Source: Pseudomonadota bacterium
Lineage (GTDB): Bacteria; Pseudomonadota; Gammaproteobacteria; Burkholderiales; Burkholderiaceae_C
NCBI GenBank assembly: GCA_049322875.1
Contig: JBMOQM010000056.1
Location: 5,997 to 69,996, forward strand
Length of the DNA stretch: 64,000 nucleotides
Direction: 5' to 3'
Both the position numbers and the translations under genes were made by a program. Position 1 is the stretch's first letter; each line of letters opens with the position of its first letter. Positions 1 to 63,209 of the stretch are shown here, piece after piece. The notes under the pieces were generated by a model, which was not told where the DNA came from, did no database searches, and saw only the letters and a program-made list of their open reading frames with translations.

Positions 1-16
1 GACGCAGGACAAGGCC

Positions 17-994
17 ATGTCGCTGTTCGGGAAGGTGAAGATGGGCTACCTGGTGGCCGAATCCAGCAGGCTCACCGAATGGCAGCGCTTCATGGGGGAC
101 GGGCTGGGCATGCACGTCGATGCCGTCGGGCAGGACCTGCTCGCCGGGCGGATCGATGCGCGCGAGCGCCGCTTCATCGTTCAGAAGGGGGCGCGGGAAG
201 ACGTGGCCGCCATCGGCTGGCAGCTCGCGGATGAGCCCGCGCTTGAACTGGCCTTGAGGCGCCTGCGTGAACGCGCCATTGATTTCCAGGAGGTTGGCGG
301 CCTGGAGGCAGGCGCGAGGGGCGTGGACCGTCTGTGGCGCATCAAGGGCCCCAAGGGCTTGGCCACCGAGCTGTTCATCCATGCTCGCTCGACCGCACAG
401 CCGCTGTCGATGAAGGCATCCGGTTTCATGACAGGCGAGGGCGGCATGGGCCATGTGGCTATCACCACCCGCCAGCCTGCGGCCATGCAGTCGTTCTGGA
501 AGGAGATCTTCGATGCGCGCCTGTCCGACCACATCGAGCAGCGCATCGACGGTGTCCAGCTGGAGCTGACTTTCCTTCGGCTCAATGAGCGCCACCACTC
601 GATCGCCACGGCGGCGACACGCGGCATCCGCCTGAACCCGCTGCGTACGCAGATCCACCACGTCAACCTGCAGACCGCTTCGCTGGACGATGTGATCCAT
701 GGCTACCTGCGTTGCCGTGCCATGGGCTACGACATCGCCAACGCCATCGGGCAGCACCCCAATGACCGTGAGCTGTCGTTCTACGTGGTGTCGCCCTCGG
801 GCTTCGAGGTCGAGCTGGGCTGGGATCCCATCGTGGTCGATGAGGCCCATTGGGTGCCCACCACTTACCAGGGCATGAGCCTGTGGGGGCACCGGCCCGA
901 GAACCTGACCCTGGCTTACAGGCTGGGTCGATTGAAGCAAGGCGTCACGTCGCTGATGCGTGATGAGTTCATGCCCGAAGGAGTTCAGCGATGA
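17..994 (+). CDS. Extradiol ring-cleavage dioxygenase (VOC family, BphC/HsaC-like)
   Basis: Two-domain VOC pattern; candidate Fe(II) ligands in GHVAI, HHVNL and EVELG; motifs NERHHSIA and IGQHPNDRELSFYVVSPSGFEVELG; stop overlaps the next start (ATGA at 991-994). Confidence 0.88.
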   Translation: MSLFGKVKMGYLVAESSRLTEWQRFMGDGLGMHVDAVGQDLLAGRIDARERRFIVQKGAREDVAAIGWQLADEPALELALRRLRERAIDFQEVGGLEAGARGVDRLWRIKGPKGLATELFIHARSTAQPLSMKASGFMTGEGGMGHVAITTRQPAAMQSFWKEIFDARLSDHIEQRIDGVQLELTFLRLNERHHSIATAATRGIRLNPLRTQIHHVNLQTASLDDVIHGYLRCRAMGYDIANAIGQHPNDRELSFYVVSPSGFEVELGWDPIVVDEAHWVPTTYQGMSLWGHRPENLTLAYRLGRLKQGVTSLMRDEFMPEGVQR

Positions 995-2754
995 CCGCCT
1001 GCATTGATCACCCACTGCCCAAGGGCAGTCAGGACACATCGGTCTATGACGTCGCGATCGTCGGGATGGGGCCGACCGGCCTGGTGCTGGCCCATGCGCT
1101 GGGCATGAACGGGCACCGCGTGGTGGTGCTCGAGAAGGAGCCTGTGTTCTACGGCAATGCGCGGGCCGTCTATACCGATGACGAGTGCATGCGCATCTTC
1201 CAGTCGCTGGGCATCGCCAAGGAGGTTCAGGCGCAGATGATGATGGACACGCCGGTGCAATTTGTGCGCCCTGATGGATCCCTCATGGCGCAGTACATGC
1301 CGCTCTCGCGCTACTTCGGCTGGCCGGTGGTGAACTTCTTTTACCAACCCTACCTGGAGACCACGCTGTCCAGCCAACTGGCGCGCTACCCCCATGTCGA
1401 GGTGCGCCGTGGCCGTGAGGTGGTCGATTTCAGCCAGGATGAGGCGGCCGTGACTGTCACACACCAGGCGACGCAGGAGGTGCGCTTCACGGAGTTCGGC
1501 GATTCGCGCAAACTCACGCGCGGCGACCTCGATGCGCAGACGCTTCGCGCCCGCTACCTGGTGGGCTGCGACGGCGGCCGCAGCGTGGTGCGCACGAAGC
1601 TGGGCATCGACATGACGGGCAAGAACTTCCCGGAACCCTGGCTGGTGGTGGATCTGCAGCGCAAGCCCGGTGTCGATGGCCTGCGCCACCTGCCGTATTT
1701 CAACTTCGTGGTCGACCCGGCCTTGCCGGTGGTCAGCTGTGTGCAGCCCGATGGTTTCCACCGCTTCGAGTTCATGCTGATGCCCGGCGAGACGAAGGAG
1801 AACATGGAGCGGCCCGAGACCGTGCGCCATTACCTCTCCAGGTTCATCGACCCGGATCAGTTCGAGATCAAGCGGCGCCTCGTCTATACCTTCAACGCCT
1901 TGATGGCGAAGGCGTGGCGACGCGACCGAGTCCTGCTGGCCGGTGATGCCGCGCACATGACGCCGCAGTTCATGGGCCAGGGCGCCAGCTCGGGCATCCG
2001 CGATGCCTACAACCTGGGCTGGAAGCTGGACCTGATCCTGAAGGGGCAGGTCAGTGAGCGGGTCCTCGACAGCTACGAGAAGGAACGCAAGGCCCACGCC
2101 CAGGCCATGATCGACGTGTCGGTGCTGCTCAAGGACATCGTGTCGATGACGCACCCCGTCGGCACGCTGGTCCGCGATGCTTTCATCGCTGTGTCCCAGT
2201 CGATCGGACCGCTCAAGCGCTTCTTCCGTGATGGGGGCTTCAAGCCGCTGCCCGTCTACAAGCGCGGCAGCTACCTGGGCATGCCGCGCAGTGGCTTGCG
2301 TGGCCCCGAGGGCGTGCTCTCTCCCCAGCCCGAGGTGCGCCTGTTCGACAGCACGCGTGTATTGCTGGACGACGTGATGGGGCCGGGCTTCTCGCTGATA
2401 GGCCTGAATGTCGATCCGCGCGAGTACCTGGATGGCACCAGCACGAGGATGCTCGAATCGCTCGGGGCCAGCTTCGTGACGCTGTACGCCTATGGCGAGC
2501 GCCCCCAGGGACTGCAAGGGGTTGAGCGCGATGTGCGGCTGGGCACGCTGGAAGTCGAGGACATCGGCGGCGTCATGGTCGAGTGGTTTCGCAAGGCCGG
2601 CTTCAAGGATCGTGCCGTGGCCGTGCTGCGCCCGGACAAATTCACGTTCGGTGTGGTGCAGCCCGAAGCTTTACCCAAGGTTCTGAGCGAGCTGGCCCAC
2701 CAGTTCGATGTGGCGGCGAGCAACGTCGTCCACCTGCCCAGAGAGGCGGCCTGA
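991..2754 (+). CDS. FAD-dependent aromatic hydroxylase, MhpA-like (paralog 1)
   Basis: GxGxxG (VGMGPTG), DG motif (GCDGGRS), GD motif (LAGDAAH..PQFMGQG), C-terminal VLRPD thioredoxin-like domain. Confidence 0.88.
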   Translation: MTACIDHPLPKGSQDTSVYDVAIVGMGPTGLVLAHALGMNGHRVVVLEKEPVFYGNARAVYTDDECMRIFQSLGIAKEVQAQMMMDTPVQFVRPDGSLMAQYMPLSRYFGWPVVNFFYQPYLETTLSSQLARYPHVEVRRGREVVDFSQDEAAVTVTHQATQEVRFTEFGDSRKLTRGDLDAQTLRARYLVGCDGGRSVVRTKLGIDMTGKNFPEPWLVVDLQRKPGVDGLRHLPYFNFVVDPALPVVSCVQPDGFHRFEFMLMPGETKENMERPETVRHYLSRFIDPDQFEIKRRLVYTFNALMAKAWRRDRVLLAGDAAHMTPQFMGQGASSGIRDAYNLGWKLDLILKGQVSERVLDSYEKERKAHAQAMIDVSVLLKDIVSMTHPVGTLVRDAFIAVSQSIGPLKRFFRDGGFKPLPVYKRGSYLGMPRSGLRGPEGVLSPQPEVRLFDSTRVLLDDVMGPGFSLIGLNVDPREYLDGTSTRMLESLGASFVTLYAYGERPQGLQGVERDVRLGTLEVEDIGGVMVEWFRKAGFKDRAVAVLRPDKFTFGVVQPEALPKVLSELAHQFDVAASNVVHLPREAA

Positions 2755-2786
2755 GCTCGCCATCCACCACCACTGAGGAGAACGAC

Positions 2787-3926
2787 ATGACAGGATCCGA
2801 ATTCCAAGATGCGAATGCCACGCGGGCCACCGGGCGCCGCCGCTTTCTGCAGGAAGCCGCCGGCCTGGCTGCCGCATCGGCGGCGGCCCTGGGCGGGGGC
2901 AGCCTGCCCGGTGTGGCCATGGCAGGCCTGGGTGGGGCTGGAGGCACACCGTTTCGCATCGACGTTCATTGCCACCACATCCCGGACTTCTACCGGCTGT
3001 CGATGGCCGCGCACGGCATCCTCACGGCGGGCGGCATTCCACTGCCCTTGTGGTCACCGACCATGGCTGTTAACTTCATGGACAAGTTCGGCATCCAGAC
3101 GCAGGTGGTGTCCATCTCGGAGCCAGGTGTCACCTACCTCAAGACCCTGGGCGATCGCAAGGCCATGGCGCAGCGCATCAACGACTACACGCGCGACGAG
3201 CTGGTCACCACCTCGGCCGCAGGGCTGGCCGGGCGCTTCGGCGGCTTCGGTGTGATGCCGATCCGCGATCCGCGCAACCCGCTGGATGTGCTTGCGGCCA
3301 GCGCAGAAGCGGTGCGGGTCGTCCAGCGTCTGCGGCTCGATGGCATCGGCTTGTTCAGCAACTATCAGGGCGTCTACCTGGGGCATCCATCGTTCGAGCC
3401 GTTGATGGCCACGCTCGATGCGCTGGGCGCCATGGTGTTCATCCATCCGGTCACGCCAACCGATCCGCCAGACCTGGGGCTGCCGTCCTTCCTGTACGAG
3501 TTCCCTTTCGACACGACCCGTGCGGCCGTGAACCTGCTCTACAAGGGCGTTCTCAACCGGTATCCCAACATCCGCTGGCTGCTGGCGCATGCGGGCGGCA
3601 CGATCCCTTACCTGTCGTACCGCACAGGGTTGCTGCGGCTGAACCTCGATCCCACCAGCAGTGTCTACAAGAACCTGTTCTTCGACACGGCCCTGTCCGC
3701 CGCGCCGCCGGCGATGAAGGCCGTGCGCGAGATCACGCCTGTCAGCCACGTGATGTTTGCCACCGACTGGCCTTTCGCTGGGCCGGTGTTCCTGACCAAG
3801 CCCGCGGGCGATCCGGCTGCGGAACTCGACCTGTCCTTCAACACCGAAGAGCGCCTGCTGGTGGACCGTCGCAACGCGCTGACGCAGCTGCCGACGCTCG
3901 CTGCGCGGCTTGGCGTAGCGCCCTGA
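2787..3926 (+). CDS. Amidohydrolase-2 family metalloenzyme (decarboxylase/hydrolase) with Tat signal peptide
   Basis: ATG at 2787 follows a GAGGAG RBS; GRRRFLQ + hydrophobic stretch + AMA; HxH (DVHCHH), FIHP, LAHAGG, FDTALS, FATDWPF. Confidence 0.85.
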   Translation: MTGSEFQDANATRATGRRRFLQEAAGLAAASAAALGGGSLPGVAMAGLGGAGGTPFRIDVHCHHIPDFYRLSMAAHGILTAGGIPLPLWSPTMAVNFMDKFGIQTQVVSISEPGVTYLKTLGDRKAMAQRINDYTRDELVTTSAAGLAGRFGGFGVMPIRDPRNPLDVLAASAEAVRVVQRLRLDGIGLFSNYQGVYLGHPSFEPLMATLDALGAMVFIHPVTPTDPPDLGLPSFLYEFPFDTTRAAVNLLYKGVLNRYPNIRWLLAHAGGTIPYLSYRTGLLRLNLDPTSSVYKNLFFDTALSAAPPAMKAVREITPVSHVMFATDWPFAGPVFLTKPAGDPAAELDLSFNTEERLLVDRRNALTQLPTLAARLGVAP

Positions 3927-3932
3927 AGCGGA

Positions 3933-4559
3933 TCAGCGCTTTGATGACGAGGGCAGGGGAGGCAGGTCCATGGTGGCCAGCGCGCGGGCTTCCGCGCGTG
4001 ACAAACCCAGCGCCACCAAGGTGAACTCGGCGGCATCCGCACCGGCCTCGCGCCAGGTCTTGATGCCTTCTAGAACGCTGAAGATGCTGCTGAGTACGGC
4101 ACCGGCCTGCAGCCCGATCACCGATGGCAACTGCTCCTGGCGGAAGTGGTAACGCCCGCTCTGCAGGCCTGCCATCAGATCTGTCACGGGCTGCCCTTCC
4201 CACACCTTGCGCAATGACTCGGCGTTGAAGGCATAGCGGCATATGAAGCGGCCCCAGTGCGGCTCTTCATGGGCGCGCCGGATGTACAGGCGGATGCCGT
4301 TGGCCAGGCGATGCGCGGGATCGGTGATGCCTTCGAAGCTGGCGGTGATGCGCCAGTTCATGTCGTCGGCGAGCTGCGCGGCCACCTCCTCGAACAGGTG
4401 GTCGGGGTCGTGCAGGTTGTTGTAGATGGTGCCGCGCGCCACGCCGGCCGCCTGTGCCAGCTCGCTGACGTTGACCTGGTTGATGCCACGTTCGGCGAAC
4501 AGCTTCAGCGCGGCGGCATGGATGCGTTGTTGAGCAGGTGTCAGGGCCGCCACGGGCAT
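3933..4559 (-). CDS. TetR-family transcriptional regulator
   Basis: N-terminal HTH (IHAAALKLFAERGINQVNVSELAQAAGVARGTIYNN). The start could instead be GTG at 4553, which has better GAGGA spacing. Confidence 0.88.
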   Translation of the reverse strand: MPVAALTPAQQRIHAAALKLFAERGINQVNVSELAQAAGVARGTIYNNLHDPDHLFEEVAAQLADDMNWRITASFEGITDPAHRLANGIRLYIRRAHEEPHWGRFICRYAFNAESLRKVWEGQPVTDLMAGLQSGRYHFRQEQLPSVIGLQAGAVLSSIFSVLEGIKTWREAGADAAEFTLVALGLSRAEARALATMDLPPLPSSSKR

Positions 4560-4613
4560 TCCTCGGTCATGGGGGAATCACAGGAGGCCCTATTGTCTCT
4601 TGAACGCCGGTGT

Positions 4614-5708
4614 TCAAAACACCTTGATCACCCGGATCTGATGGAAACTGCCCTGCTTGGCGTAGCGCGAGTCCGTGCTCTTCATGGTCTGCAGTGTCAC
4701 CACGGCATCGGCCACCGGCAGCTTGGTGGTGAAGAAGACGCCGGCGTTCGTCAGGCGCAGGCGGGCGTCGCCGTAAGGATTGCCGCTGTCGTCCTGTGTC
4801 TGCTGGATGTGGATGGCGTGCAGCCCGATGGGGCCCAACGGGGTCTTGTAGGCCACGGCACCTTCGAGCCCGAGCCAGTTGCCGCTGCGCAGGTCGTTGT
4901 CGCTGTTGCGTGTGTTGAAGCCCAGGGTCAGCTTGCCCGCCACGGCTACATTGGACTGCGGCATCCATGCCACCTGCACCGCCGGGCGGAAGGTGTAGAA
5001 GTTGCCGGTGCCCACGTCGGGGCCGGCTGCCGAGTCATAGCTGCCGGTGGGCAGCACGACGGATGCACCGGCCAGCACGCGCCAGCGCTCGTTGGCGTAC
5101 AACCAGCCGGCCTGCAGTTCGGTGTCGCCCATACCGGTGTCCTCGCCGGTCTCGCCGCTGGCCATGGCCTGGATCCTGGTGAGGTAGCTGCTCTCGAACT
5201 GCTGTGTCACGGCACCCTTGGTGGCCGGATTGGGGATGCTGCCGCTGGGCCAGTTCAGCGCCGGGGCGGTGGTGCGGGCGTTGAACGATTGGCTCTTGGC
5301 GCCGTACTGCAGGTTGAGCAGCATGGCGAGCCGCCCGCCGCCGTACTGCGCGGTCGTGATGTAGCCCAGGGCCAGGTTGTAGATGCGGAATCCGCCTCCG
5401 GCGTCCACTTCGATCTCCTTGGCACCATACGATGGGTCGTAAGGGGTGGGCGATGCGCCCAGTGCCACGGTGCCACCCGGCACGGCGACCTTGAGCCTGT
5501 GGCCGTCGCCGCCCGTCACCTTGTCGACATTGATGTAGGTGGCCGCGGCGCCGACACCCCAGCCCGTCTGGTCTGGGGGCGCGAACATTTCGCCGCCGAG
5601 CGAGCCGGCCACGTTGTAGCGCACCTGAAAGCCTTCGGCGGACAGCGCAGGCAGGGCGGCTGTCAGCAAGGCGGCGGCGCAAGCGCCATGGAATGGAACG
5701 GATTTCAT
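4614..5708 (-). CDS. Outer-membrane beta-barrel, SphA / MetA-pathway phenol-degradation family
   Basis: Signal peptide (..LPALSA); alternating beta strands; family-like DTELQAGWLY..ASVVLPTGSYD..GTGNFYTFRP; C-terminal Phe; ATG at 5708 follows CAGGAG. Confidence 0.75.
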   Translation of the reverse strand: MKSVPFHGACAAALLTAALPALSAEGFQVRYNVAGSLGGEMFAPPDQTGWGVGAAATYINVDKVTGGDGHRLKVAVPGGTVALGASPTPYDPSYGAKEIEVDAGGGFRIYNLALGYITTAQYGGGRLAMLLNLQYGAKSQSFNARTTAPALNWPSGSIPNPATKGAVTQQFESSYLTRIQAMASGETGEDTGMGDTELQAGWLYANERWRVLAGASVVLPTGSYDSAAGPDVGTGNFYTFRPAVQVAWMPQSNVAVAGKLTLGFNTRNSDNDLRSGNWLGLEGAVAYKTPLGPIGLHAIHIQQTQDDSGNPYGDARLRLTNAGVFFTTKLPVADAVVTLQTMKSTDSRYAKQGSFHQIRVIKVF

Positions 5709-5831
5709 CTCTCGTGTCTCCTGGTGGGTAGATGGGGGCAAGTGGTCGTTGCGGATGCACGTGCGTGTTCATCCGTGCCCTTCGTCTTGTCGACGGGGCT
5801 GGGTCGCAAAGGGAACAGGGAAGGCGGTGCG

Positions 5832-6908
5832 TTAGCGGTTGCGTGCGCGATCGGCCATCGCGATCACGGGCCGGATGGCCAGGTGCTTGAGGCGATCGCG
5901 CCAGCCCATGCCGCCGGCATGCGGCAGGGATCGCACCGTGTCGCCGCTGCCGGCGAGGTGGGGGAACAGGGCCAGAGCATTGGCGCGGTCGATGCCTGCT
6001 CGCTGCTCCGTGGTGAAGAACGGCAGTTCATCCAGCTGCCTGGTCTGCAGGCCGGTGACGGGCTCCGGTGCGAAGGGGAAGTCACTGCCGAAGAGGATCT
6101 TCGATGGATCGACCAGCTCCTTGAGCGCTGCCATGGCAAATGGCGAGGGCGACAGGGCCGTGTCGAACCAGAAGCGCTTGAGGTAGGCCAGGACGCCCTG
6201 GGGCGCCTTTTCGTAAGTTTCGGGCAGCATGTTGGCCAGCGACAGACGCCAGGCCACGTAAGGGGTGAACCCACCTGCATGCGCCAGGATCCAGCGGATC
6301 CGGGGATGGCGCTCCATCGTGCCCGACAGGATCAGGTTGGTCGCGGCCCGCGTGGTGTCACACAGGAACTCGATCAGGAAGCCCGGCATGTCCAGGCGCA
6401 GTTGCGTGCTGGTGGCGTGCAGGTTGGGATGCACGAACACGGTCGCTTCGCGCCGGTCCAGCTCGGCCATCAACTCATCGAACCGGGGATCGCCCAGGAA
6501 ATAGCCTTCGGTGCTGCCCAGCAGCACGATGCCGTCTGCGCGCAGTTCATCGAGGGCGCGTACGGCTTCCCGACAGGCTTGCGCCGTGAGGGGCATTGGC
6601 AACACGGCGAAGAAGCCGAAGCGTCCGGGATGTGCCTGCACGGTCTGCGCGCAGAAGTCGTTGCACGACTGGGCGAGCGACACCGCCTTGCGTTCGTCTC
6701 CAAAAAAGACGCCCGGCGCGGACAGCGAGAGCAAAGCCGTCTCGATACCCTGCATGTTCATCAGATCAAGCGAGCGTTGCGGCGTCCATTGGGGCAAAGG
6801 GGCACCAGCCACCAGGGACAGCCCCTGATCCTTCATGGTCTGAGCGAAGGTGGGGGGAATCACATGGTGGTGAACGTCGATGCGTCGGTGTTGGGGGCGG
6901 GCGGTCAT
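5832..6908 (-). CDS. Amidohydrolase-2 family enzyme (aromatic-acid decarboxylase/hydrolase-like), cytoplasmic
   Basis: RIDVHHHVIPP, VFVHP, LAHAGG, FDTALS, FGSDFPF; no signal peptide. Confidence 0.87.
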   Translation of the reverse strand: MTARPQHRRIDVHHHVIPPTFAQTMKDQGLSLVAGAPLPQWTPQRSLDLMNMQGIETALLSLSAPGVFFGDERKAVSLAQSCNDFCAQTVQAHPGRFGFFAVLPMPLTAQACREAVRALDELRADGIVLLGSTEGYFLGDPRFDELMAELDRREATVFVHPNLHATSTQLRLDMPGFLIEFLCDTTRAATNLILSGTMERHPRIRWILAHAGGFTPYVAWRLSLANMLPETYEKAPQGVLAYLKRFWFDTALSPSPFAMAALKELVDPSKILFGSDFPFAPEPVTGLQTRQLDELPFFTTEQRAGIDRANALALFPHLAGSGDTVRSLPHAGGMGWRDRLKHLAIRPVIAMADRARNR

Positions 6909-6960
6909 GATGGTGGTCGGCTTGTTGATGCCGCGATTCTGGAAACCGCGCTGCCAGCCC

Positions 6961-7008
6961 GCCTGTCATTTGTTGACAGGCTGCACATGGCCTTACCCTG
7001 TGAACAGG
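6961..7008. promoter_or_regulatory. Palindromic operator candidates between the divergent amidohydrolase and AraC genes
   Basis: Perfect inverted repeats GCCTGTCA-N5-TGACAGGC (6961-6981) and CCTGT-GA-ACAGG (6997-7008). Confidence 0.45.
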
Positions 7009-7027
7009 CCAATCAAGGGCAATCCCT

Positions 7028-8053
7028 ATGAGTACGTACCAAGAATCGGTACCGGCGCGGTACATCGCCGGGTTGGTGCAGGCGCTGACACGGCAAGGCC
7101 ATGACTGCAATCCCGTCTTGAAGGCGGCGAAGCTGTCATCGGCTGCCCTGTCATTGCCTGATGCGCGCATCCCGCGTGAACGCATGGCCGCGCTGCTCAT
7201 CGGCCTCAGCCTGGCGACCGGGCGCAGCGACCTGGGGTTCGAGATGGGCCGTCAGATCGATGTGACGGCCTACCCGTTGCTGGGCCAGTTGCTGCGCACG
7301 GCCAGGGACCTGGGCGAGGGCCTGCAGCGACTGGTCCCTTACATCCCCTTGATCACACCGTCCTTCCGCGTGCACTGCGAGATCGTCGATGGCGAACTGC
7401 ACATGCGCTGGCAGCTACTCAGGCCCATGCCTTACGACATGATGAAGATGGCCTGCGAGTGCATCCTGGTGGCCTCTTGCATGGGCCTCAGGCAGCTCTT
7501 TCCATCGAAGGCGGTGACGCTGACCGCATGCGTGCCCTGGTCACCCCCTCAGCATGCACGGCGCTACAGCGAGCTGCCTGGGCTGACGATGCGTTACCAG
7601 GCCGAGGCCATGCAGATCGGCGTGTGTCTGATCGTGCCTGAGGCCCTCGTGCGATGGGCCATGCCACGATCGAACAGCAGGGTATGGCGCAGCGCACACG
7701 CCGCCTGCGCGGAGGAACTGCGCCACCTGCAGTCCATGCACCGCTGGGCAGACTGGGTGGCCCATGTGCTCGACGTCGTCGAGGACCACCAGCCCAGCCA
7801 GGCCGAGCTGGCCAGCCTGATGGGCATCGCCCCTCGCACGCTGGCCCGTCACCTGGAGACCGAAAGCGTCAGCTACAAGTCGCTGGTGCTGGACATCCGG
7901 CACCGACGTGCGTGCCGTCTGCTGGGCACCAGCGACATCACCGTGTCGGAGCTGGCGCGCCTGCTGGGCTACAACGACAGCGCCAACTTCGCCCGTGCGT
8001 TCAAGGCGCGGGAAGGGCGCACGCCCACGCAGTACCGGCAGTCGCTGGGGTGA
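7028..8053 (+). CDS. AraC-family transcriptional regulator (OruR/ArgR-type N-terminal domain)
   Basis: C-terminal double HTH: MGIAPRTLARHL..ITVSELARLLGYNDSANFARAFK..GRTPTQYR. Confidence 0.9.
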   Translation: MSTYQESVPARYIAGLVQALTRQGHDCNPVLKAAKLSSAALSLPDARIPRERMAALLIGLSLATGRSDLGFEMGRQIDVTAYPLLGQLLRTARDLGEGLQRLVPYIPLITPSFRVHCEIVDGELHMRWQLLRPMPYDMMKMACECILVASCMGLRQLFPSKAVTLTACVPWSPPQHARRYSELPGLTMRYQAEAMQIGVCLIVPEALVRWAMPRSNSRVWRSAHAACAEELRHLQSMHRWADWVAHVLDVVEDHQPSQAELASLMGIAPRTLARHLETESVSYKSLVLDIRHRRACRLLGTSDITVSELARLLGYNDSANFARAFKAREGRTPTQYRQSLG

Positions 8054-8080
8054 GTGGGCGCGGAGGGTGTTGATGGGCGC

Positions 8081-8869
8081 TCAGTTGTCCGGGCCGAAAG
8101 GATTGGCCGGCAGCGCGATGTCGGGCAACGGGCGCCGTGCCACCTCGTGTGCATCGGCAGCCGGCAGGCCCAGCAGCTGCAGCACCAGCACTGTGATGCG
8201 CTCGCCAATGTTCTTGGTGTCCTGCAGCATCGGGAAAGGCAAGCTGCGCCCGGCCTTCAGCTCCACTTCCGTGGCCAGCGCGCCCAGCACGATGCTGCCC
8301 ACGGCAACGAAGGTGGCGGCCGGGTCGTCGATCCGGAAGCGCTTGCGCGCGATGCCATCGGCCAGATCCTGCAGAAAGTAGCGGCCCATGCCTGCGCTCA
8401 CGCCATCGGCCGTGAAGCCCGAGCGCACCACGAAACGTCCCCACAGCGGATCCTGCTGGCCGCGCTTAATGACATAGCGGATGCAGCCCGCGATCTTCTC
8501 GGCGGGATCCTGGATCTGCTCGCTCAGGTGGTCGAGCGCGCCGGCGAACTGCCCTACCACTTCCGTGATCAGGGCCTCGTAGACCGCTTCTTTCGATGGG
8601 AAGTGGTTGTAGAAGGAGCCGAAGCCCACATCGGCGGCCTCGGTGATCTCGTTGATCGCCACGCCGTCCACCCCCTTGTCCGCCATCAGGCGCAGGGCCG
8701 CGCCAAGCAGGCGCGCGCGGGTGTCCCGCTTGCGGCGAGCACCGCGGGGCTCGCGTGCGGGCGCTTCTGCTTCTTCGGCGATGGGGGCTGCCGCCGCCTT
8801 GGCAGGGGCGGTCCTGGCTGTCTTGCGGGGCGTGGTCTTCGGGGCGGTCTTGGCGGCGGCCGGGGGCAT
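8081..8869 (-). CDS. TetR-family transcriptional regulator with a low-complexity N-terminus
   Basis: RARLLGAALRLMADKGVDGVAINEITEAADVGFGSFYNHF HTH. Confidence 0.9.
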   Translation of the reverse strand: MPPAAAKTAPKTTPRKTARTAPAKAAAAPIAEEAEAPAREPRGARRKRDTRARLLGAALRLMADKGVDGVAINEITEAADVGFGSFYNHFPSKEAVYEALITEVVGQFAGALDHLSEQIQDPAEKIAGCIRYVIKRGQQDPLWGRFVVRSGFTADGVSAGMGRYFLQDLADGIARKRFRIDDPAATFVAVGSIVLGALATEVELKAGRSLPFPMLQDTKNIGERITVLVLQLLGLPAADAHEVARRPLPDIALPANPFGPDN

Positions 8870-8921
8870 GGGGACGCGTCTCCTTCACAACAGAGGGCTT
8901 TGCTCAAGTATAGGGTATTCC

Positions 8922-8950
8922 ATAATCTTCATCAAAACTGATGAAATTAT
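8922..8950. promoter_or_regulatory. Probable TetR operator in an AT-rich divergent promoter
   Basis: ATAAT-c-TTCATCA-AAAC-TGATGAA-ATTAT inverted repeat between tetR (8869) and mhpA-like 2. Confidence 0.55.
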
Positions 8951-9016
8951 CATTCATGAGGAATTTATACAAATGTGCAGGTCGGCATGACGACCGCACG
9001 CTTTCTTCGGTTTGAG

Positions 9017-10636
9017 ATGTCCATGCCATCTGCTGTTCCACATCCCCAGGTGCTCGTCGTCGGGCTGGGCCCGGTCGGGGCCACCATCTGCAACCTGCTC
9101 GGACGCCAGGGCATCCGCACCCTGGCCATCGACCGGGCCACCGAGGTGTTTGCCGCGCCACGCGCCATCGCGCTGGACAACGAGGCGCTGCGCATCCTGC
9201 AGATGTGCGGCCTGCAAGAGGGGGATTTCGACACCATCGCCATCCCTCATGTGCGCATGCATTCGCCCTTCTTCGGGCAGTTCGCCATGGCCAATGCCTT
9301 CGGGCCGCAAGACGGGCATCCCAAGCTGGTGACCTTCTTCCAGCCCGAGCTCGAAGCCGTGCTGCGGCAGCGCCTGCAGGATCACGCCAGCGTGCAGGTG
9401 CGGCTGGGCACGACGCTGACGGGCCTGCGGCAGGATGCCGATGGCGCCTGGGCCGAACTGGGTATCGGGGGCGTGGCCTGCACCGTGCGGGCCGACTACG
9501 TGATCGCGGCCGATGGTGCCAACTCCACCGTGCGCCAACTGCTGGGCCAGCGCTTCGAGGGGCAGACCTTTCCTGAGGATTGGCTGGTCGTGGACGCGAA
9601 GAAGGTGCCCAAGCCCATCGACCACGTCGAGTTTCTGTGCAGCCACCAGAGGCCCGTGCCGCACATGGTGGCGCCCGGTGACCGGCAACGCTGGGAGTTC
9701 AAGCTGCGGCGCGGCGAGACGCGCGAACAGATGGAGCGGCCGGACACCATCCGCGAATTGCTGGCCCCCTGGGGCACGCCGGAAGAGATCGACATCGAGC
9801 GCGTGGCGGTCTACCGCTTCCATGCGCGCATCACCGAATCCTTCTCATCGGGGCGCGTTTTCCTGGCGGGCGATGCGGCCCATATCACGCCGCCCTTTGT
9901 GGGGCAGGGATTGGTGGCCGGTCTGCGCGACGCGGGCAATCTGTGCTGGAAGCTGGCCTGGGTGCTCAAGGGCCATGCGGCGCCGGGCATCCTGTCGACC
10001 TACAACCAGGAGCGCCGCCCGCACGTGGTGGCCATGGTGCGCCTGGCCACCTTCATGGGGCGGCTGGTGATGCCGGGCACGGCGTTGGGCGCGTGGGTCA
10101 CGCACGGGTTGATGTCGATGCTGCGCCTGGTGCCGCGCCTGCGCCGCCTGCTGGAGGAGTTGGAGATCAAGCCTGTGCACTGCTTCAAGCACGGGTTGTT
10201 CGCGACAGGCGGTGCGTCACGCCTTCGCCGTGGTGGGCTGTTCGCGCAGGGCTGGGTGCGAAAGGGGTTGGGCGATGCGCCCGTGCTCAGCGATGCCGTG
10301 CTGGGCGAGCACATGACGGTGATCGGCTTCGGCGTGGACCCGACGCGCCATCTGGATGCAGGCCTCGCTGACCAATGGCTGCGCGCGGGTGGTCGGTTCG
10401 TGCAGATCGATCCACGGGGCCGCGCGTGTACGCCTTCGTCCTGCGAGCGCTGGGAGGATGTCAGCGGCGACCTGATGCCGCGCTATGCCCCCATGGACTG
10501 GCTCGCCATCGTGCGGCCGGACCGCGCGGTGATCCACGACGGCCCGGCGCCCTGCGCGGCGCGCCTGATCCGCGAAACGCTGGACCTGTTGACCCCCTCG
10601 CGCAGCCGTCCCCAATGGCAGTTGCTGCGCAACTGA
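9017..10636 (+). CDS. FAD-dependent aromatic hydroxylase, MhpA-like (paralog 2)
   Basis: VVGLGPVG, AADGANS, LAGDAAHITPPFVGQG, IVRPD. Start is 9017 or 9023; the upstream ATGs lie in the promoter region. Confidence 0.88.
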   Translation: MSMPSAVPHPQVLVVGLGPVGATICNLLGRQGIRTLAIDRATEVFAAPRAIALDNEALRILQMCGLQEGDFDTIAIPHVRMHSPFFGQFAMANAFGPQDGHPKLVTFFQPELEAVLRQRLQDHASVQVRLGTTLTGLRQDADGAWAELGIGGVACTVRADYVIAADGANSTVRQLLGQRFEGQTFPEDWLVVDAKKVPKPIDHVEFLCSHQRPVPHMVAPGDRQRWEFKLRRGETREQMERPDTIRELLAPWGTPEEIDIERVAVYRFHARITESFSSGRVFLAGDAAHITPPFVGQGLVAGLRDAGNLCWKLAWVLKGHAAPGILSTYNQERRPHVVAMVRLATFMGRLVMPGTALGAWVTHGLMSMLRLVPRLRRLLEELEIKPVHCFKHGLFATGGASRLRRGGLFAQGWVRKGLGDAPVLSDAVLGEHMTVIGFGVDPTRHLDAGLADQWLRAGGRFVQIDPRGRACTPSSCERWEDVSGDLMPRYAPMDWLAIVRPDRAVIHDGPAPCAARLIRETLDLLTPSRSRPQWQLLRN

Positions 10637-10665
10637 TTCGATCACCCGATCCCGCAGGCTTTCCC

Positions 10666-11742
10666 ATGACTTTGCTCACCACCCCACAACCCGCGCGCCA
10701 CGCCAGCCCCACCGTCAAGGCGCGGCGCCTGGCCTACCTGATGTTCGAGCGCCCCGATCTGGACCGGGCGGAAACCTTCCTGCAGGATTTCGGCCTGCGC
10801 ACGGCGCACAAGAGCGCATCGACGCTGTTCATGCGCGCGGCCGATGCCTCGCCGTTCTGCTACCGTATCGAGCGAGGGCGCAAGGCCGCCTTCATGGGCT
10901 TCGGCCTGGAGGTGGGCAGCAGAGAAGACCTGTTGCGCCTGTCCACATTGCAACCCGGTGCGAGCCTCCAGAAGGCCCAAGGCCCAGGTGGTGGTGAACT
11001 GCTGCGCCTGGCCGATCCATCGGGCTTCGCCGTCGAAGCCGTGCATGGCCAGGCACGCGGCGCGCCATTGACACCTCACCGCGGGCTGTTGCCCTGGAAC
11101 CTGGGTGACCAGCACCCACGCGTCAACGACACGCAGCGCCCGCCCGCTGTGCCGCCCGATGTGCTCAAGCTTGGCCATGTGGTGCTGGAGGTGGCCGATT
11201 TCCAGGCCACCTGCGCCTGGTACACGCGGCACTTCGGCTTCATTCCCAGCGATGTGCAGGTGCTGCCCGATGGCTCGCCCGCCGTGACCTTCCTGCGGCT
11301 GGACCTGGGCGACACGCCGGCCGACCACCACACGCTGGCACTGGCCCAGGGCTTCATGCCCACCTACAGCCACAGCGCCTTCGAGGTGCTGGACACCGAC
11401 GCCGTGGGCATGGGCCAGCGCGTGCTGCGCGAGCGCGGCTGGCGACATGCCTGGGGCATGGGGCGGCACATCCTGGGCAGCCAGGTGTTCGACTACTGGC
11501 AGGACCCCTGGGGCGACAAGCACGAGCACTACTGCGATGGTGACCTGTTCACGGCCGACCTGCGCACCGGTGTCTTCCCGGTCAGCCGCGAAGCCATGTC
11601 GCAATGGGGGCCGCCCATGCCGGCCAGCTTCACCAAGCCCAGCCTGTCGCCCGCCAACCTCAAGGCGATGTGGCGCAGTCTGCGACGCAGCCCGGATGTC
11701 ACCGTGGCCAAGCTGGTGCAACTGGCCCGGCTGTTCGCCTGA
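10666..11742 (+). CDS. VOC-family ring-cleavage dioxygenase (trihydroxy-aromatic oxygenase, DntD/HcdB-like)
   Basis: LAYLMFERPDL, KLGHVVLEV, DHHTLAL, SHSAFEV, WGMGRHILGSQVFDYWQDPWGDKHEHYCDGD. Confidence 0.8.
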   Translation: MTLLTTPQPARHASPTVKARRLAYLMFERPDLDRAETFLQDFGLRTAHKSASTLFMRAADASPFCYRIERGRKAAFMGFGLEVGSREDLLRLSTLQPGASLQKAQGPGGGELLRLADPSGFAVEAVHGQARGAPLTPHRGLLPWNLGDQHPRVNDTQRPPAVPPDVLKLGHVVLEVADFQATCAWYTRHFGFIPSDVQVLPDGSPAVTFLRLDLGDTPADHHTLALAQGFMPTYSHSAFEVLDTDAVGMGQRVLRERGWRHAWGMGRHILGSQVFDYWQDPWGDKHEHYCDGDLFTADLRTGVFPVSREAMSQWGPPMPASFTKPSLSPANLKAMWRSLRRSPDVTVAKLVQLARLFA

Positions 11743-11783
11743 TCCGCCTTCTTTCATCTTCCACCGTATACAAGGCACATGCC

Positions 11784-12740
11784 ATGGCCATTCACGTCGT
11801 TCGTTATTCGCACCAGGGGCAGACCCGCTGGGGCGTGCTCGATCAGGGACGCATCGCACCCATCGATGGCGATTACGCCACCACCGCCGATCTGGTGCGC
11901 GCGCACAGCGCCACCTCGCTGGCCGGCCACCTCGGGCACGGCGGTATCGATCTGGCCGCGGTGCGCGTGCTCTCACCGGTCACCAGCAACCAGCAGTTCG
12001 TCTGCCAGGGCGCCAACTACCGCCAGCACATGATCGAGTCGGGCATGGACCCCGATGCCAAGCACTTCAACATGATCTTCACCAAGGCTTCGAGTTGCAT
12101 CGTGCCAGCCGACAGCCCCGTGGTACGGCCTGCCCATGTGCGTTTCCTGGACTACGAGATCGAGCTGGGCCTGGTGATCAAGCGCGACATCACCACACCG
12201 GTGAAGGTGACGGACGTGAACCTGCACGAGTTCATCGCCGGCGTGGTCATCGTCAACGACTACTCCGCGCGCGATGTGCAGATCCCGCAGATGCAGTTCT
12301 ACAAGGGCAAGAGCTACCGCACCTTCGGGCCGGTGGGCCCCGTGCTGTGTCTGCTCGCGCCTCAGGAGATGCACTACCTGTCCAAGCTGAACCTCACGCT
12401 CAAGGTCAATGGTGGCGTGCGCCAGCAAGACAGCACCGCGAACCTGGTGCACCGCCCGCCCGAGACGTTGACCGAGTTGTCCGGCGTGCACGACCTGTTC
12501 GGCGGCGACTTGATTGCCACAGGCACGCCCTCGGGCTGCGCACTGTCGATTCCCTCGCCATTCAAGCAGCGCATCGGCGCGCTGTTGCCCGAGAAAAAGA
12601 AGTGGGAGATCTTCATGAAGGTGCAGGCCCAGCGTGCGCAATACCTCAAGCCGGGCGATGTCGTCGAGGCCGAGATCCGCAGCGCCGATGGCGTGGTGCA
12701 ACTGGGCGTGCAGCGCAACGTCGTGCAGGAGCAGGCATGA
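11784..12740 (+). CDS. Fumarylacetoacetate-hydrolase family protein
   Basis: CQGANY, IFTKASS, LDYEIELGLVI, VNDYSARD, KGKSYRTFGPVGP, GDLIATGTPSG. Confidence 0.9.
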   Translation: MAIHVVRYSHQGQTRWGVLDQGRIAPIDGDYATTADLVRAHSATSLAGHLGHGGIDLAAVRVLSPVTSNQQFVCQGANYRQHMIESGMDPDAKHFNMIFTKASSCIVPADSPVVRPAHVRFLDYEIELGLVIKRDITTPVKVTDVNLHEFIAGVVIVNDYSARDVQIPQMQFYKGKSYRTFGPVGPVLCLLAPQEMHYLSKLNLTLKVNGGVRQQDSTANLVHRPPETLTELSGVHDLFGGDLIATGTPSGCALSIPSPFKQRIGALLPEKKKWEIFMKVQAQRAQYLKPGDVVEAEIRSADGVVQLGVQRNVVQEQA

Positions 12741-14752
12741 GCCGCGGCATTGCCTCCATGGCCGATGTGCTGGCGTTGGAAGCCGCTGGCATGCCTGATC
12801 TGCCCGCCAGCACCTACGAGATGATCGGGCGCAGCGCGAAGGCGCATCCGGAACGGCCTGCGCTTTCGTTCTTCCTGCGCACGCAGGACCATGCCCGGCC
12901 CGAAGTGTGGTCCTACCGTCGCTTCTTCGAGCGCATCACCCAGGCCGCGAACCTCTTCCATGGTCTGGGCATCGGGCCGAACGATGTGGTGGCCTTCGTG
13001 CTGCCCAGCCTGCCTGAAACGCACTTCACGATCTGGGGCGGGCAGGCCGCCGGCATCGCTTACGCCGTCAACCCCTTGCTGGAGCCGCAGGCCATCGCCG
13101 ATCTGCTGGTGGCTGGTGGCGCGACGGTGCTGGTCACGCTGGCACCGTTTCCCGGTACCGATCTGTGGTGCAGGCTGCAGGGCGTCCTGCACCAGGTGCC
13201 CGCGCTTCGGCACGTGGTGCTGGTCAACCTGGCCGACCGGGTGCGGGGCCCGAAGAAACTGGCCGCGCGCTGGCTGCAGCGGCGTGAAACACGACGCCTG
13301 CATGGCCGATCGGGGCTGGCCGGTGCCGTGCCGGACTGGGTGCATTTGCACGACTTCAACAAGGCGCTGAGGCGGCAACCCGCCGACAGACTCGTCAGCG
13401 GCCGCGTCATCCAGCCCGACGATCTTTCGTCCTACTTCTGTACGGGTGGCACCACCGGCCTGCCCAAGATCGCGATGCGACGGCACCGCAACGAAGTGGC
13501 CAATGCGTGGAGCGCCGCGCAGTTCCTGGGCGATGGCATCAGCACAGACAAGAACATTTTCTGTGGCCTGCCGCTGTTCCACGTCAACGCCGCGATGGTG
13601 ACTGGCCTCACGCCGTTCTCACGCGGCGCGCACGTGATCCTGGGCACGCCCCAGGGCTACCGGGGCGAAGGGGTGGTGCCCAGGTTCTGGGAGCTGGTGC
13701 ATCGCCACCACATCCATTTCTTCAGCGGCGTGCCTACGCTCTACGCCACGCTGATGCAATACCCCACCGAGGGGCACGACATCAGCAGCCTGGAGTACGG
13801 CCTGTGCGGTGCCGCGCCCATGCCGGTGGAGCTGATGAACACCTTCCAGGAGCGCACCGGGCTCAAGATTCTGGAGGGTTACGGCCTTACCGAAGGCACC
13901 TGCGTGAGCTCCACCAATCCACCGTTGGGTGATCGCAGGCTGGGCTCCATCGGCATTCGTCTGCCCTTGCAGCGCATGAAGACCGTGCTGCTGGACGACC
14001 AGGGCGCCTATGTGCGTGACTGCGATCCTGGCGAGGTCGGGACCATCCTGATCGAAGGCGCCAACGTATTCGCTGGCTACAAGGAGGCCGCGCACAACCA
14101 GGGCCTGTGGGTGGGGCTGCCGGATGGGCAATGCTGGCTCAACACCGGCGATCTGGGGCGCATGGACGAGCAGGGCTACTTCTACCTCACGGGCCGCAAG
14201 AAGGAGTTGATCATCCGGGGCGGTCACAACATCGACCCGGCCAGCATCGAAGAGCCCTTGCACAAGCATCCGGCGGTGCAACTGGCCGCGGCCATCGGTT
14301 GGCCGGACGAGCATGCGGGTGAGTTGCCCGTGGCCTATGTGCAGCTCAAGCCCGGGGCATCAGCCACCGAGGCCGAACTGCTGGACTTCGCCCAACGCCA
14401 CATCACCGAACGCGCGGCGCTGCCCAAGGCCATTCGCGTGATCGAGCAGATGCCGCTCACGGGCGTCGGCAAGATCTTCAAGCCGGCGCTCAAGGAGCAG
14501 GCGTGCCATGAGGCGCTTAGCCAGGCGTTGAGAAGGGCGGGCATTGACGCGCCAATGCTGTCCGTGAGCCAGCACCCGAAGTTTGGCCTCTTTGTGCAGC
14601 TCACCGTGCACGATGCCTCTGTGGAGGAGGCGCGGGCTGTTCTTGGGCGCTTTCCGTTTCAGTTCGCGATCGAACCGCTTGGTGTTCTGGTGGACCGAAG
14701 GAGGATCGAACTCCCGACCTCTGCATTGCGAACGCAGCGCTCTCCCAACTGA
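12737..14752 (+). CDS. Acyl-CoA synthetase (AMP-forming); the last ~21 codons are antisense to tRNA-Ala
   Basis: FCTGGTTGLPK AMP-binding loop, EGYGLTE, NTGDLG, GRKKELIIRGG, GVGKIFK; ATG 12737 overlaps the FAH stop (ATGA). Confidence 0.9.
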   Translation: MSRGIASMADVLALEAAGMPDLPASTYEMIGRSAKAHPERPALSFFLRTQDHARPEVWSYRRFFERITQAANLFHGLGIGPNDVVAFVLPSLPETHFTIWGGQAAGIAYAVNPLLEPQAIADLLVAGGATVLVTLAPFPGTDLWCRLQGVLHQVPALRHVVLVNLADRVRGPKKLAARWLQRRETRRLHGRSGLAGAVPDWVHLHDFNKALRRQPADRLVSGRVIQPDDLSSYFCTGGTTGLPKIAMRRHRNEVANAWSAAQFLGDGISTDKNIFCGLPLFHVNAAMVTGLTPFSRGAHVILGTPQGYRGEGVVPRFWELVHRHHIHFFSGVPTLYATLMQYPTEGHDISSLEYGLCGAAPMPVELMNTFQERTGLKILEGYGLTEGTCVSSTNPPLGDRRLGSIGIRLPLQRMKTVLLDDQGAYVRDCDPGEVGTILIEGANVFAGYKEAAHNQGLWVGLPDGQCWLNTGDLGRMDEQGYFYLTGRKKELIIRGGHNIDPASIEEPLHKHPAVQLAAAIGWPDEHAGELPVAYVQLKPGASATEAELLDFAQRHITERAALPKAIRVIEQMPLTGVGKIFKPALKEQACHEALSQALRRAGIDAPMLSVSQHPKFGLFVQLTVHDASVEEARAVLGRFPFQFAIEPLGVLVDRRRIELPTSALRTQRSPN

Positions 14753-14763
14753 GCTATCGGCCC
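14688..14763 (-). tRNA. tRNA-Ala (anticodon CGC)
   Basis: 76 nt GGGCCGATAGCTCAGTTGGGAGAGCGCTGCGTTCGCAATGCAGAGGTCGGGAGTTCGATCCTCCTTCGGTCCACCA; full cloverleaf, G3-U70 alanine determinant, encoded CCA. Confidence 0.97.
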
Positions 14764-17865: not shown

Positions 17866-17935
17866 ATTGTAGGCGGCGAAACCGGCGCGCAGGCTGGGGC
17901 ACGCCCTTACCGCCCTTGGGCACTCGCCTTACAAT
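17866..17935. promoter_or_regulatory. Back-to-back sigma70 -10 elements (zapB-like leftward, riboswitch/btuB rightward)
   Basis: TACAAT on the minus strand at 17866-17871 and on the plus strand at 17930-17935. Confidence 0.5.
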
Positions 17936-17941
17936 GCCGCC

Positions 17942-18153
17942 CGTTGGTGCTCGCGCCGGGGTTCGCTCGGCGCAGTTAAACGGGAAGCAAGAGGGCTTGA
18001 GGCACCACCGGTGCCAGCTCGACTTGCGCTGCCCCCGCAACGGTCGGCGGTCAAGCCCTGCAAGGGGCTTCGCTCGTGTTCTACAGCCACTGGGTACACA
18101 CAACACCTGGGAAGGCTTCACGGGTCGAACCGCCCAGCCCGGATACCGGCCAG
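17942..18153 (+). promoter_or_regulatory. Cobalamin (AdoCbl) riboswitch
   Basis: GGTGC..AGTTAAACGGGAA, CTGCCCCCGCAACGGT, GCCACTG..GGGAAGGC, AGCCCGGATACCGGCC; lies upstream of btuB and cob genes. Confidence 0.93.
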
Positions 18154-18257
18154 CAGGGGGTGTGGTGGCACAGAGCCTGGGGCCGTGTTGCCGTGCCATG
18201 TCGCCTCATGCCTGGCGGGGATGCCGGCGGGGCTTTTGTCCTGTGTGTTTTTCAATC

Positions 18258-48700: not shown

Positions 48701-48783
48701 CGGTTTGTGCGTCTCACCAGCGCGGATCTGGCGGGGGCATCCCAGTGCATCGACTCTCTCGTGACGATGGACCGGAGGTATGC

Positions 48784-50706: not shown

Positions 50707-50841
50707 CCTAGATCGGAGACCTATGCGGCAAGCTGCAGCAGAGCAGACGACAAGCCCCTTCGGGGGCCGTCCCCAGCGAGGCCGGCACTGTGGTGTGATG
50801 CACGTGCCAGGCCCCGGGTTTGTCACGGGGAGGACGCGCAC

Positions 50842-62355: not shown

Positions 62356-62368
62356 TCGAGCCTGCCAC

Positions 62369-63199: not shown

Positions 63200-63209
63200 C
63201 AAGACGTTC

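Follow-up and report, generated by a model that had tools for sequence, protein, structure and literature searches.

A probable composite aromatic-catabolism locus beside tRNA-Ala in a Burkholderiaceae_C chromosome

Can a bacterium run a ring-cleavage pathway without the enzymes that ordinarily complete one? The question is raised by a block of genes for aromatic catabolism that fills the first 14.7 kb of a 64,000-nucleotide stretch of contig JBMOQM010000056.1 (assembly GCA_049322875.1, Burkholderiaceae_C; this whole stretch is hereafter the window), from its left edge to a tRNA-Ala gene. A preliminary description of the window listed two MhpA-like hydroxylases, two types of VOC dioxygenase, two amidohydrolases, an outer-membrane channel, an FAH-family protein, a ligase and three regulators, and proposed that the amidohydrolases and the FAH protein replace the MhpC/D/E-type lower pathway. 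A pathway able to do without alpha/beta hydrolase, hydratase and aldolase would have stood out as an exception; the locus is instead an example of a window-edge artefact. The reading that we favour, and consider probable, is that the block forms the right-hand three quarters of a chromosomal locus of ~19.4 kb composed of three separable cassettes, here termed A, E and B. On this reading it is an ordinary composite catabolic locus whose substrate is uncharacterised and which includes an unstudied family of exported enzymes.

Module A across the left edge of the window

We called genes by third-position GC content (GC3) and assigned them with Pfam and NCBIfam profiles. The window has a GC content of 65–70%, and raw lists of its open reading frames (ORFs) consist mostly of spurious frames; GC3 traced a single coding frame throughout positions 1–14,752. 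Together with the profiles, it bore out the catalogue of genes listed above, each at the position first given for it. The leftmost gene, VOC1 (1–994, + strand), encodes a type I extradiol dioxygenase of the BphC/HsaC-like kind with BphC_D1 and Glyoxalase domains. It finds BphC-type structures in PDB (E 1e-40) and scores 203 bits against TIGR03213 (BphC) and 159 bits against HsaC, both below the equivalog cut-offs. MhpA-like FAD aromatic hydroxylase 1 (MhpA1; 991–2,754, + strand; 587 amino acids (aa); FAD_binding_3) scores 432.8 bits with NF004829, for which the cut-off is 390. The start of its gene lies in a 4-nt overlap that takes in the VOC1 stop codon, and the amidohydrolase gene AH1 (2,787–3,926, + strand) follows.

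We reached the left flank by exact-protein look-ups with MhpA1 and with AH2, the second amidohydrolase of the block, which led to contigs from at least 10 metagenome or assembly samples. Four contigs (L030, L033, L034 and L037) match the window at 100% identity over 5.7–13.6 kb, and a fifth, L032, is 99.99% identical. VOC1 is 331 aa long in the identical contigs (L032, 9,009–10,004), with a start codon that begins 2 nt left of the window; an exact-protein look-up of VOC1 taken from the ATG at position 17 returned no match because the true start lies outside the window. In every one of these contigs that reaches far enough left, five lower-pathway genes lie ahead of VOC1 on its own strand, the junctions being short or overlapping. 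These encode a 2-keto-4-pentenoate hydratase (264 aa; best match NF008461, 302 bits, below its cut-off of 350), an acylating acetaldehyde dehydrogenase (317 aa; TIGR03215, 466 bits, cut-off 282), a 4-hydroxy-2-oxovalerate aldolase (345 aa; TIGR03217, 596 bits, cut-off 286), an SDR (262 aa, from the gene tables of the identical contigs) and, 17 nt upstream of VOC1, an alpha/beta meta-cleavage-product hydrolase (297 aa; Abhydrolase_1; best models HsaD at 230 bits and BphD at 188 bits, both below cut-off).

As the preliminary description stated, the cluster runs off the left edge, and it continues for ~4.6 kb beyond it. The absence of lower-pathway genes from the window is an edge artefact, because in identical contigs those genes start 19 nt left of position 1. 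That no alpha/beta hydrolase, hydratase or aldolase is present is literally true inside the 64 kb, where tblastn detects no homologue of the upstream lower-pathway genes, but all three lie directly upstream. The flank, to which the preliminary description had looked in advance for a decision, thus holds hydratase, dehydrogenase, aldolase and hydrolase genes in the orientation of VOC1 and MhpA1, and the proposed replacement of the lower pathway falls away.

With the flank counted, the canonical meta-cleavage set is complete: a hydroxylase–dioxygenase pair, an alpha/beta hydrolase, a hydratase, an aldolase and a dehydrogenase. Module A reads, in order, hydratase, acetaldehyde dehydrogenase, aldolase, SDR, alpha/beta hydrolase, VOC1, MhpA1 and AH1, the last of which appears to close the operon both here and in L001, the closest metagenome-assembled genome (MAG). 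Judged from its genes, it encodes a canonical pathway with a hydroxylase, an extradiol dioxygenase, a hydrolase, a hydratase, an aldolase and a dehydrogenase, and it resembles the mhp/hpp/bph-type systems (MhpABCDFE of E. coli and Comamonas; Bph and Hsa), in which the same activities also sit in one apparent transcription unit. It departs from mhp in having a VOC type I, BphC-like dioxygenase rather than the LigB-type MhpB, and a hydrolase nearest HsaD/BphD rather than MhpC, with no MhpC model listed among its matches; an SDR and an amidohydrolase bearing a twin-arginine translocation (Tat) signal are embedded in it, which sets it apart from mhp and bph alike. The hydroxylase, dioxygenase and hydrolase all fall short of NCBIfam equivalog cut-offs, and by the strict standard of E. 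coli mhp every MhpA equivalog model scores too low (for example, 458 against 546 bits). The pairing of a BphC-like dioxygenase with an HsaD/BphD-like hydrolase suggests a catechol with a bulky 3-substituent.

Amidohydrolases AH1 and AH2 and the entry cassette

Next to module A lies cassette E, to which we assign the regulator TetR1 (3,933–4,559, − strand; TetR_N and TetR_C_40), an outer-membrane channel, AH2 (5,832–6,908, − strand; PF04909, 122.6 bits) and its exported paralogue AH1. The PF04909 domain is intact in both amidohydrolases, with its HxH, His, His, Asp set. In AH2, the HxH and beta5-His align with human ACMSD, and the beta6-His and beta8-Asp with ACMSD and LigW; in AH1, the motifs HCH, FIHP, AHAGG and TDWPF were read by inspection of the sequence. 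AH1 begins (2,787–2,930) with a textbook twin-arginine signal (MTGSEFQDANATRATGRRRFLQEAAGLAAASAAALGGGSLPGVAMA/G, spanning GRRRFLQ...AMA/G) and is predicted to be periplasmic; AH2 has no signal and is assigned to the cytoplasm. An RR-x-[FLV] motif is present in the AH1 orthologues at 8/8 related loci examined (L001, L004 and L006–L011), and 10/11 database homologues of AH1, from Proteobacteria, Nocardioides and Streptomyces, carry the Tat motif. AH1 and these homologues appear to define an exported Amidohydro_2 family without a characterised member.

The PDB structure closest to both amidohydrolases is 2f6k, a Lactobacillus plantarum structural-genomics protein without known function (E 1e-43 for AH2 and 2e-24 for AH1). 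LigW, ACMSD, the gamma-resorcylate, 2,3-dihydroxybenzoate (2,3-DHB) and salicylate decarboxylases and IDCase come next, and these similarities place AH1 and AH2 in the ACMSD/LigW decarboxylase branch. Several amidohydrolase homologues at 55–61% identity are named "6-methylsalicylate decarboxylase" by JGI, a label assigned automatically; PatG, the characterised 6-methylsalicylate decarboxylase, is an amidohydrolase-family protein (PMC12749516). AH1 and AH2 share with the ACMSD-family decarboxylases (LigW, the gamma-resorcylate, salicylate and 2,3-DHB enzymes, and fungal PatG) the PF04909 fold and the HxH/His/His/Asp motifs, and such enzymes are their nearest characterised relatives in PDB. The AH1 family differs in being Tat-exported, whereas the characterised members are cytoplasmic.

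LigY of the 5,5′-dehydrodivanillate (DDVA) pathway belongs to the same amidohydrolase superfamily and is, to our knowledge, the one earlier case in which an amidohydrolase serves as a ring-fission hydrolase. For AH2, LigW (E 2.5e-27) and ACMSD (3e-23) are far closer than LigY (only 9e-8, over a partial alignment), and LigY is not among the PDB matches of AH1; the module A operon, moreover, holds an alpha/beta hydrolase. Because AH1 carries a Tat signal, it could not hydrolyse ring-fission products in the cytoplasm and would have to act on the incoming compound, possibly by decarboxylating salicylate-type acids at entry. The earlier suggestion of a hydrophobic phenolic acid subject to decarboxylation remains reasonable given the ACMSD/LigW affinity and the hydrophobic-solute channels found at every homologous locus, but a cytoplasmic ring-fission role for AH1 does not survive its export signal.

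The channel (4,614–5,708, − strand) belongs to PF13557 (Phenol_MetA_deg, SphA family; 69.2 bits, cut-off 22), carries a signal peptide and ends in a C-terminal Phe. SphA has been described as a predicted porin of the meta-pathway-phenol-degradation-like type (PMC3900636), and we liken the channel to it by family and description, not by alignment. Neither the Pfam and NCBIfam assignments nor the flank gene tables include an inner-membrane transporter in the locus, which fits a neutral, membrane-permeant intermediate. A bolder proposal, which we put forward tentatively and regard as doubtful, is that the AH1-type Tat-exported family of Pseudomonadota and Streptomyces would represent the first case of a non-oxidative aromatic-acid decarboxylase at work outside the cytoplasm. 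With its cytoplasmic paralogue, TetR and channel, it would make up a portable entry cassette for polyketide-type phenolic acids, from which a neutral phenol would cross the inner membrane without a transporter into either a catechol route (module A) or a hydroxyquinol route (module B). Were this so, the substrates of the cassette would be 6-alkylsalicylic or alkylresorcylic acids such as 6-methylsalicylate, orsellinate or anacardic-type lipids. The Tat-exported ACMSD-like family is the only element of the locus with real potential for novelty, and we flag these widespread enzymes, whose substrate is possibly a salicylate-type polyketide acid.

Module B and the recurrence of the cassettes

An AraC-family regulator (7,028–8,053, + strand; Arabinose_bd and HTH_18) stands between AH2 and module B. 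The latter opens with TetR2 (8,081–8,869, − strand; Pfam), which is divergent from the operon and shares 48% identity with the TetR that occupies this place in B. multivorans. The operon itself encodes hydroxylase 2 (MhpA2; 8,987–10,636, + strand; 549 aa by the call in identical contigs), MhpA-like and FAD-dependent as is MhpA1 (NF004829, 388 bits against 390). This is followed by VOC2 (10,666–11,742, + strand; Glyoxalase), a VOC extradiol dioxygenase that has two domains and does not share the subfamily of VOC1; an FAH-family protein with an Rv2993c-like N-terminal domain and FAA_hydrolase (11,784–12,740, + strand); and a ligase, the 671-aa acyl-CoA synthetase of the PRK07529 type (12,737–14,752, + strand; 905 bits). 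PDB searches with both hydroxylases, VOC2 and the FAH protein returned only distant or function-unknown relatives, and the matches of VOC2 were weak (3b59, E 4e-11). Homologues of VOC2 at 65–72% identity are widespread; one at 70% is annotated at source as a 2,4,5-trihydroxytoluene oxygenase, and a tblastn search of plasmids with VOC2 met no dnt plasmid, every match being annotated as "VOC family protein".

The FAH-family protein is a candidate acylpyruvate-type C–C hydrolase and the only candidate for that step in module B. The idea of a non-canonical route therefore keeps some ground in the VOC2–FAH–ligase module and loses it in module A, which has the classical set. A comparable arrangement, in which an FAH-family enzyme comes directly after a VOC extradiol dioxygenase and an alpha/beta hydrolase is absent, is found in the lower pathway of 2,4-dinitrotoluene degradation (DntD and DntG) and the orcinol/resorcinol meta route; DntG is an isomerase/hydrolase that we take to have the FAH fold. 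Unlike Dnt, module B adds a PRK07529-type acyl-CoA synthetase and an MhpA-like hydroxylase, and it is widespread in non-xenobiotic contexts. A plausible chemical analogue, compared by description and not by sequence, is hcdABC of Pseudomonas mandelii 7HK4, in which a flavin hydroxylase yields a 1,2,4-triol that undergoes extradiol cleavage and C–C hydrolysis to an acylpyruvate-type product (PMC6222606). There, however, HcdA is described as UbiH-like rather than MhpA-like, HcdC is a putative hydroxymuconic-semialdehyde hydrolase of ~31 kDa at the step where module B has an FAH-family protein, and no amidohydrolase is mentioned for the 7-hydroxycoumarin pathway (PMC6222606).

The preliminary description had spoken of duplicated modules. 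Identity within the pairs is low (MhpA1/MhpA2, 31%; VOC1/VOC2, 23%, E 0.003; AH1/AH2, 40%; TetR1/TetR2, 28%), and this range of 23–40% rules out a recent tandem duplication. The units are better described as separable cassettes, which are also found singly in Pseudomonas and Burkholderia.

We scanned species-representative genomes with AH2 and followed this with tblastn and gene calling. Loci in Pseudomonas spp. (53–62% identity) carry TetR1 and AH2, plus a signal-bearing second amidohydrolase in most, with TetR1 travelling alongside the AH2/AH1 pair. Joined to TetR1/AH2 in one set is hydrolase–VOC1–MhpA1–hydratase–dehydrogenase–aldolase, and in another MhpA2 with VOC2–FAH–ligase; FadL/TodX or DUF1302/DUF1329 outer-membrane genes accompany each of these loci. 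At no fewer than 11 independent loci, TetR1 and AH2 (usually also the Tat-bearing paralogue) are physically linked to either module A or module B. On a B. multivorans replicon, TetR and the four-gene hydroxylase–VOC–FAH–ligase operon stand by themselves, followed by OmpW (59–71% identity), and a Rubrivivax MAG has a hydroxylase–TetR–VOC–FAH core beside SDRs, a thiolase and an acyl-CoA dehydrogenase. The recurrence of hydrophobic-solute channels and of CoA/beta-oxidation enzymes supports a substrate with a hydrophobic side chain. The locus illustrates the building of catabolic clusters out of portable cassettes, one TetR/amidohydrolase-pair cassette being bolted to two ring-cleavage modules in different genera. 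In some P. aeruginosa strains, a module B homologue occupies an accessory region ~3.3 kb from a phage-type integrase (L118, 1–18,781; GCA_019688055.1), where the genes encode DUF1302, TetR, two amidohydrolases, PhyH, hydroxylase, OYE, VOC, FAH and ligase.

Proposed route, alternatives and the tRNA-Ala junction

We infer every reaction of the following route, as well as its class of substrate, from which genes are present and in what order, from their homology and the observed export signal, and from the reappearance of the cassettes elsewhere. The outer-membrane channel of cassette E would admit a hydrophobic acid of the 2-hydroxybenzoate type, and periplasmic AH1 and cytoplasmic AH2 would remove its carboxyl group non-oxidatively to leave a phenol or resorcinol. 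Module A would hydroxylate the phenol to a 3-substituted catechol, which its BphC-like dioxygenase would cleave; the HsaD/BphD-like hydrolase would hydrolyse the product, and 2-hydroxypentadienoate would be converted to pyruvate and acetyl-CoA. Module B probably takes a ring of the hydroxyquinol or trihydroxytoluene type, with the FAH protein splitting an acylpyruvate-like fission product and the ligase activating the acid that is released.

Several points weigh against this reading. The hydratase and hydrolase score below their equivalog cut-offs, and the SDR of module A has no explained role in the proposed pathway. Sequence within PF04909 does not separate a decarboxylase from a hydratase or a hydrolase, and our literature search found no precedent for a periplasmic non-oxidative decarboxylase. 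Neither any enzyme of the locus nor any close homologue has been characterised, and the literature on trihydroxytoluene and resorcinol clusters, alkylresorcinol catabolism, orcinol and acetylpyruvate, periplasmic amidohydrolase decarboxylases and DUF1302/DUF1329 yielded no characterised orthologous cluster. The likening of module B to DntD/DntG draws on the adjacency of the genes and one source annotation, not on a direct comparison of sequences. The cassettes, finally, may be functionally independent neighbours.

This last point can be pressed further, since modules A and B and the amidohydrolase/channel cassette might be wholly unrelated, with different substrates: each unit has its own regulator, module B stands alone in Burkholderia, several Pseudomonas carry module A without module B, and L001 is arranged differently. 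We think this unlikely in view of the physical joining of TetR1 and AH2 to a module at so many independent loci and of the apparent position of AH1 as the final gene of the module A operon. A similarly unlikely reading, and the main rival where the role of the amidohydrolases is concerned, makes AH1 and AH2 lactonases or esterases (compare LigI and the PF04909 sugar-lactonases) that open a lactone, depside or coumarin-type substrate in both the periplasm and the cytoplasm. PF04909 includes lactonases; periplasmic export is more usual for hydrolases; and the Pseudomonas loci include an OYE-type ene-reductase, a kind of enzyme able to reduce the double bond of coumarin ahead of lactone opening. 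In the pathway for 7-hydroxycoumarin, the enzymes are a hydroxylase, an extradiol dioxygenase and a hydrolase (PMC6222606). No lactonase structure, however, appears among the PDB matches of AH1 and AH2 at E ≤ 1e-3, where the LigW, ACMSD, gamma-resorcylate, 2,3-DHB, salicylate and IDCase decarboxylases are all present, and source annotations read 6-methylsalicylate decarboxylase. Far less credible than either is the original proposal that the route is non-canonical, with FAH and the amidohydrolases (taken as decarboxylases or as hydrolases of ring-fission products) standing in for the MhpC/D/E-type lower pathway. It drew on the genes missing from the 64 kb, on LigY as a meta-cleavage hydrolase distantly related to AH2 and on FAH as the sole C–C hydrolase candidate of module B, but it is contradicted by classical genes directly upstream in the same orientation, by the export of AH1, by the much closer kinship of AH2 with LigW and ACMSD and by the co-occurrence of the same amidohydrolases with a full classical lower pathway in Pseudomonas.

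A separate alternative concerns how the locus came to lie where it does, and the evidence is at its right-hand end. There, the block abuts without a spacer the 3′ end of an intact tRNA-Ala(CGC) gene with an encoded CCA (14,688–14,763, − strand; Rfam, 62 bits), ending at the CCA itself; a single base separates this tRNA from its counterpart in the nearest relatives. Dozens of metagenome relatives (61–85% protein identity) keep the pair formed by an HIBADH-like gene and tRNA-Ala(CGC), and 0 of them have the catabolic block beyond it, each lineage carrying different genes there instead. Similarity to the relatives ends exactly at the tRNA CCA, which together with the absence of the block marks it as lineage-specific and sited at a synteny breakpoint; the possibility, raised beforehand, of a syntenic core-genome segment shared by the relatives was not borne out. 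A classical tRNA-targeted integrative island, or a decayed remnant of one, would account for this junction, and the integrase near the P. aeruginosa homologue of module B points the same way. Yet neither the window nor the 9 kb upstream, a flank that encodes HSP20, topoisomerase IB, a DUF4142 protein and small hypothetical proteins, contains an integrase or the attR copy of the tRNA 3′ end for which the preliminary description proposed to look. No tRNA 18-mer (≤2 mismatches) has a second copy in the window, L032, L033 or L026, the block boundaries share no k-mers of ≥12 nt, and GC is flat at 64–68%, with no deviation (about 0.64–0.69) across the flank, the block and the neighbouring core genes. 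The gene next to the tRNA is catabolic rather than an integrase, and the genes that other lineages carry at the same junction are unrelated and ordinary. The tRNA anchoring first described holds as a break in synteny but not as a sign of site-specific integration; we judge a recognisable integrative island improbable and ascribe the position of the block beside tRNA-Ala to an insertion or rearrangement specific to its lineage.

The junction has left its mark on the ligase of module B. The conserved domain ends in FAIEPLG at about position 14,683, some 5 nt before the tRNA 3′ end, and the ORF has no stop of its own before the tRNA; it reads through 65 nt of antisense tRNA-Ala, so that the last ~22 codons add ~22 residues (VDRRRIELPTSALRTQRSPN, then the stop codon). 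Since the tails of homologues are short or unrelated and variable, this one is probably junk that arose with the junction and is tolerated. A merely family-typical long tail was partly rejected as an explanation: homologue tails do vary, but here the tail is exactly tRNA antisense. In more distant relatives a terminator hairpin follows this tRNA, and none is present here. A scan for promoters and terminators found sites no more numerous than in shuffled controls.

Several other features of the flank and window may be recorded. The topoisomerase IB gene of the left flank (L032, 727–1,590; ~7.4–8.3 kb left of the window, near the genes for HSP20 and DUF4142) encodes a eukaryotic-type enzyme of 287 aa (Topoisom_I). 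Right of the tRNA, a cobalamin riboswitch (17,928–18,168; Rfam, 76.5 bits) precedes a TonB-dependent receptor gene (~18,306–20,129), after which apparent cobalamin salvage or biosynthesis genes, judged from sequence only, extend to ~27.5 kb. Exopolysaccharide (EPS) genes lie elsewhere in the window. A patch of low GC (39,407–40,669; ~0.52 against 0.66) encodes a 420-aa signal-peptide protein that has no Pfam match, has a beta-barrel-like look and ends in FTLD; it sits between a Bac_transf sugar transferase gene (37,996–39,390) and putative sugar-nucleotide genes. The conserved triad of PrkA, DUF444 (YeaH) and SpoVR (YcgB) is encoded at 48,745–53,687. A flagellar export and regulation block (57,294–63,935) includes FlhB, FlhA, an FlhF-like SRP54 GTPase, a FliA-type sigma factor and a 276-aa protein that is probably FleN-like, and its presence identifies the window as ordinary chromosome. 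We take this chromosome to be probably betaproteobacterial and to belong to an aquatic or biofilm-associated bacterium; sequencing runs that match the window come from biofilm, water, plant and wastewater metagenomes.

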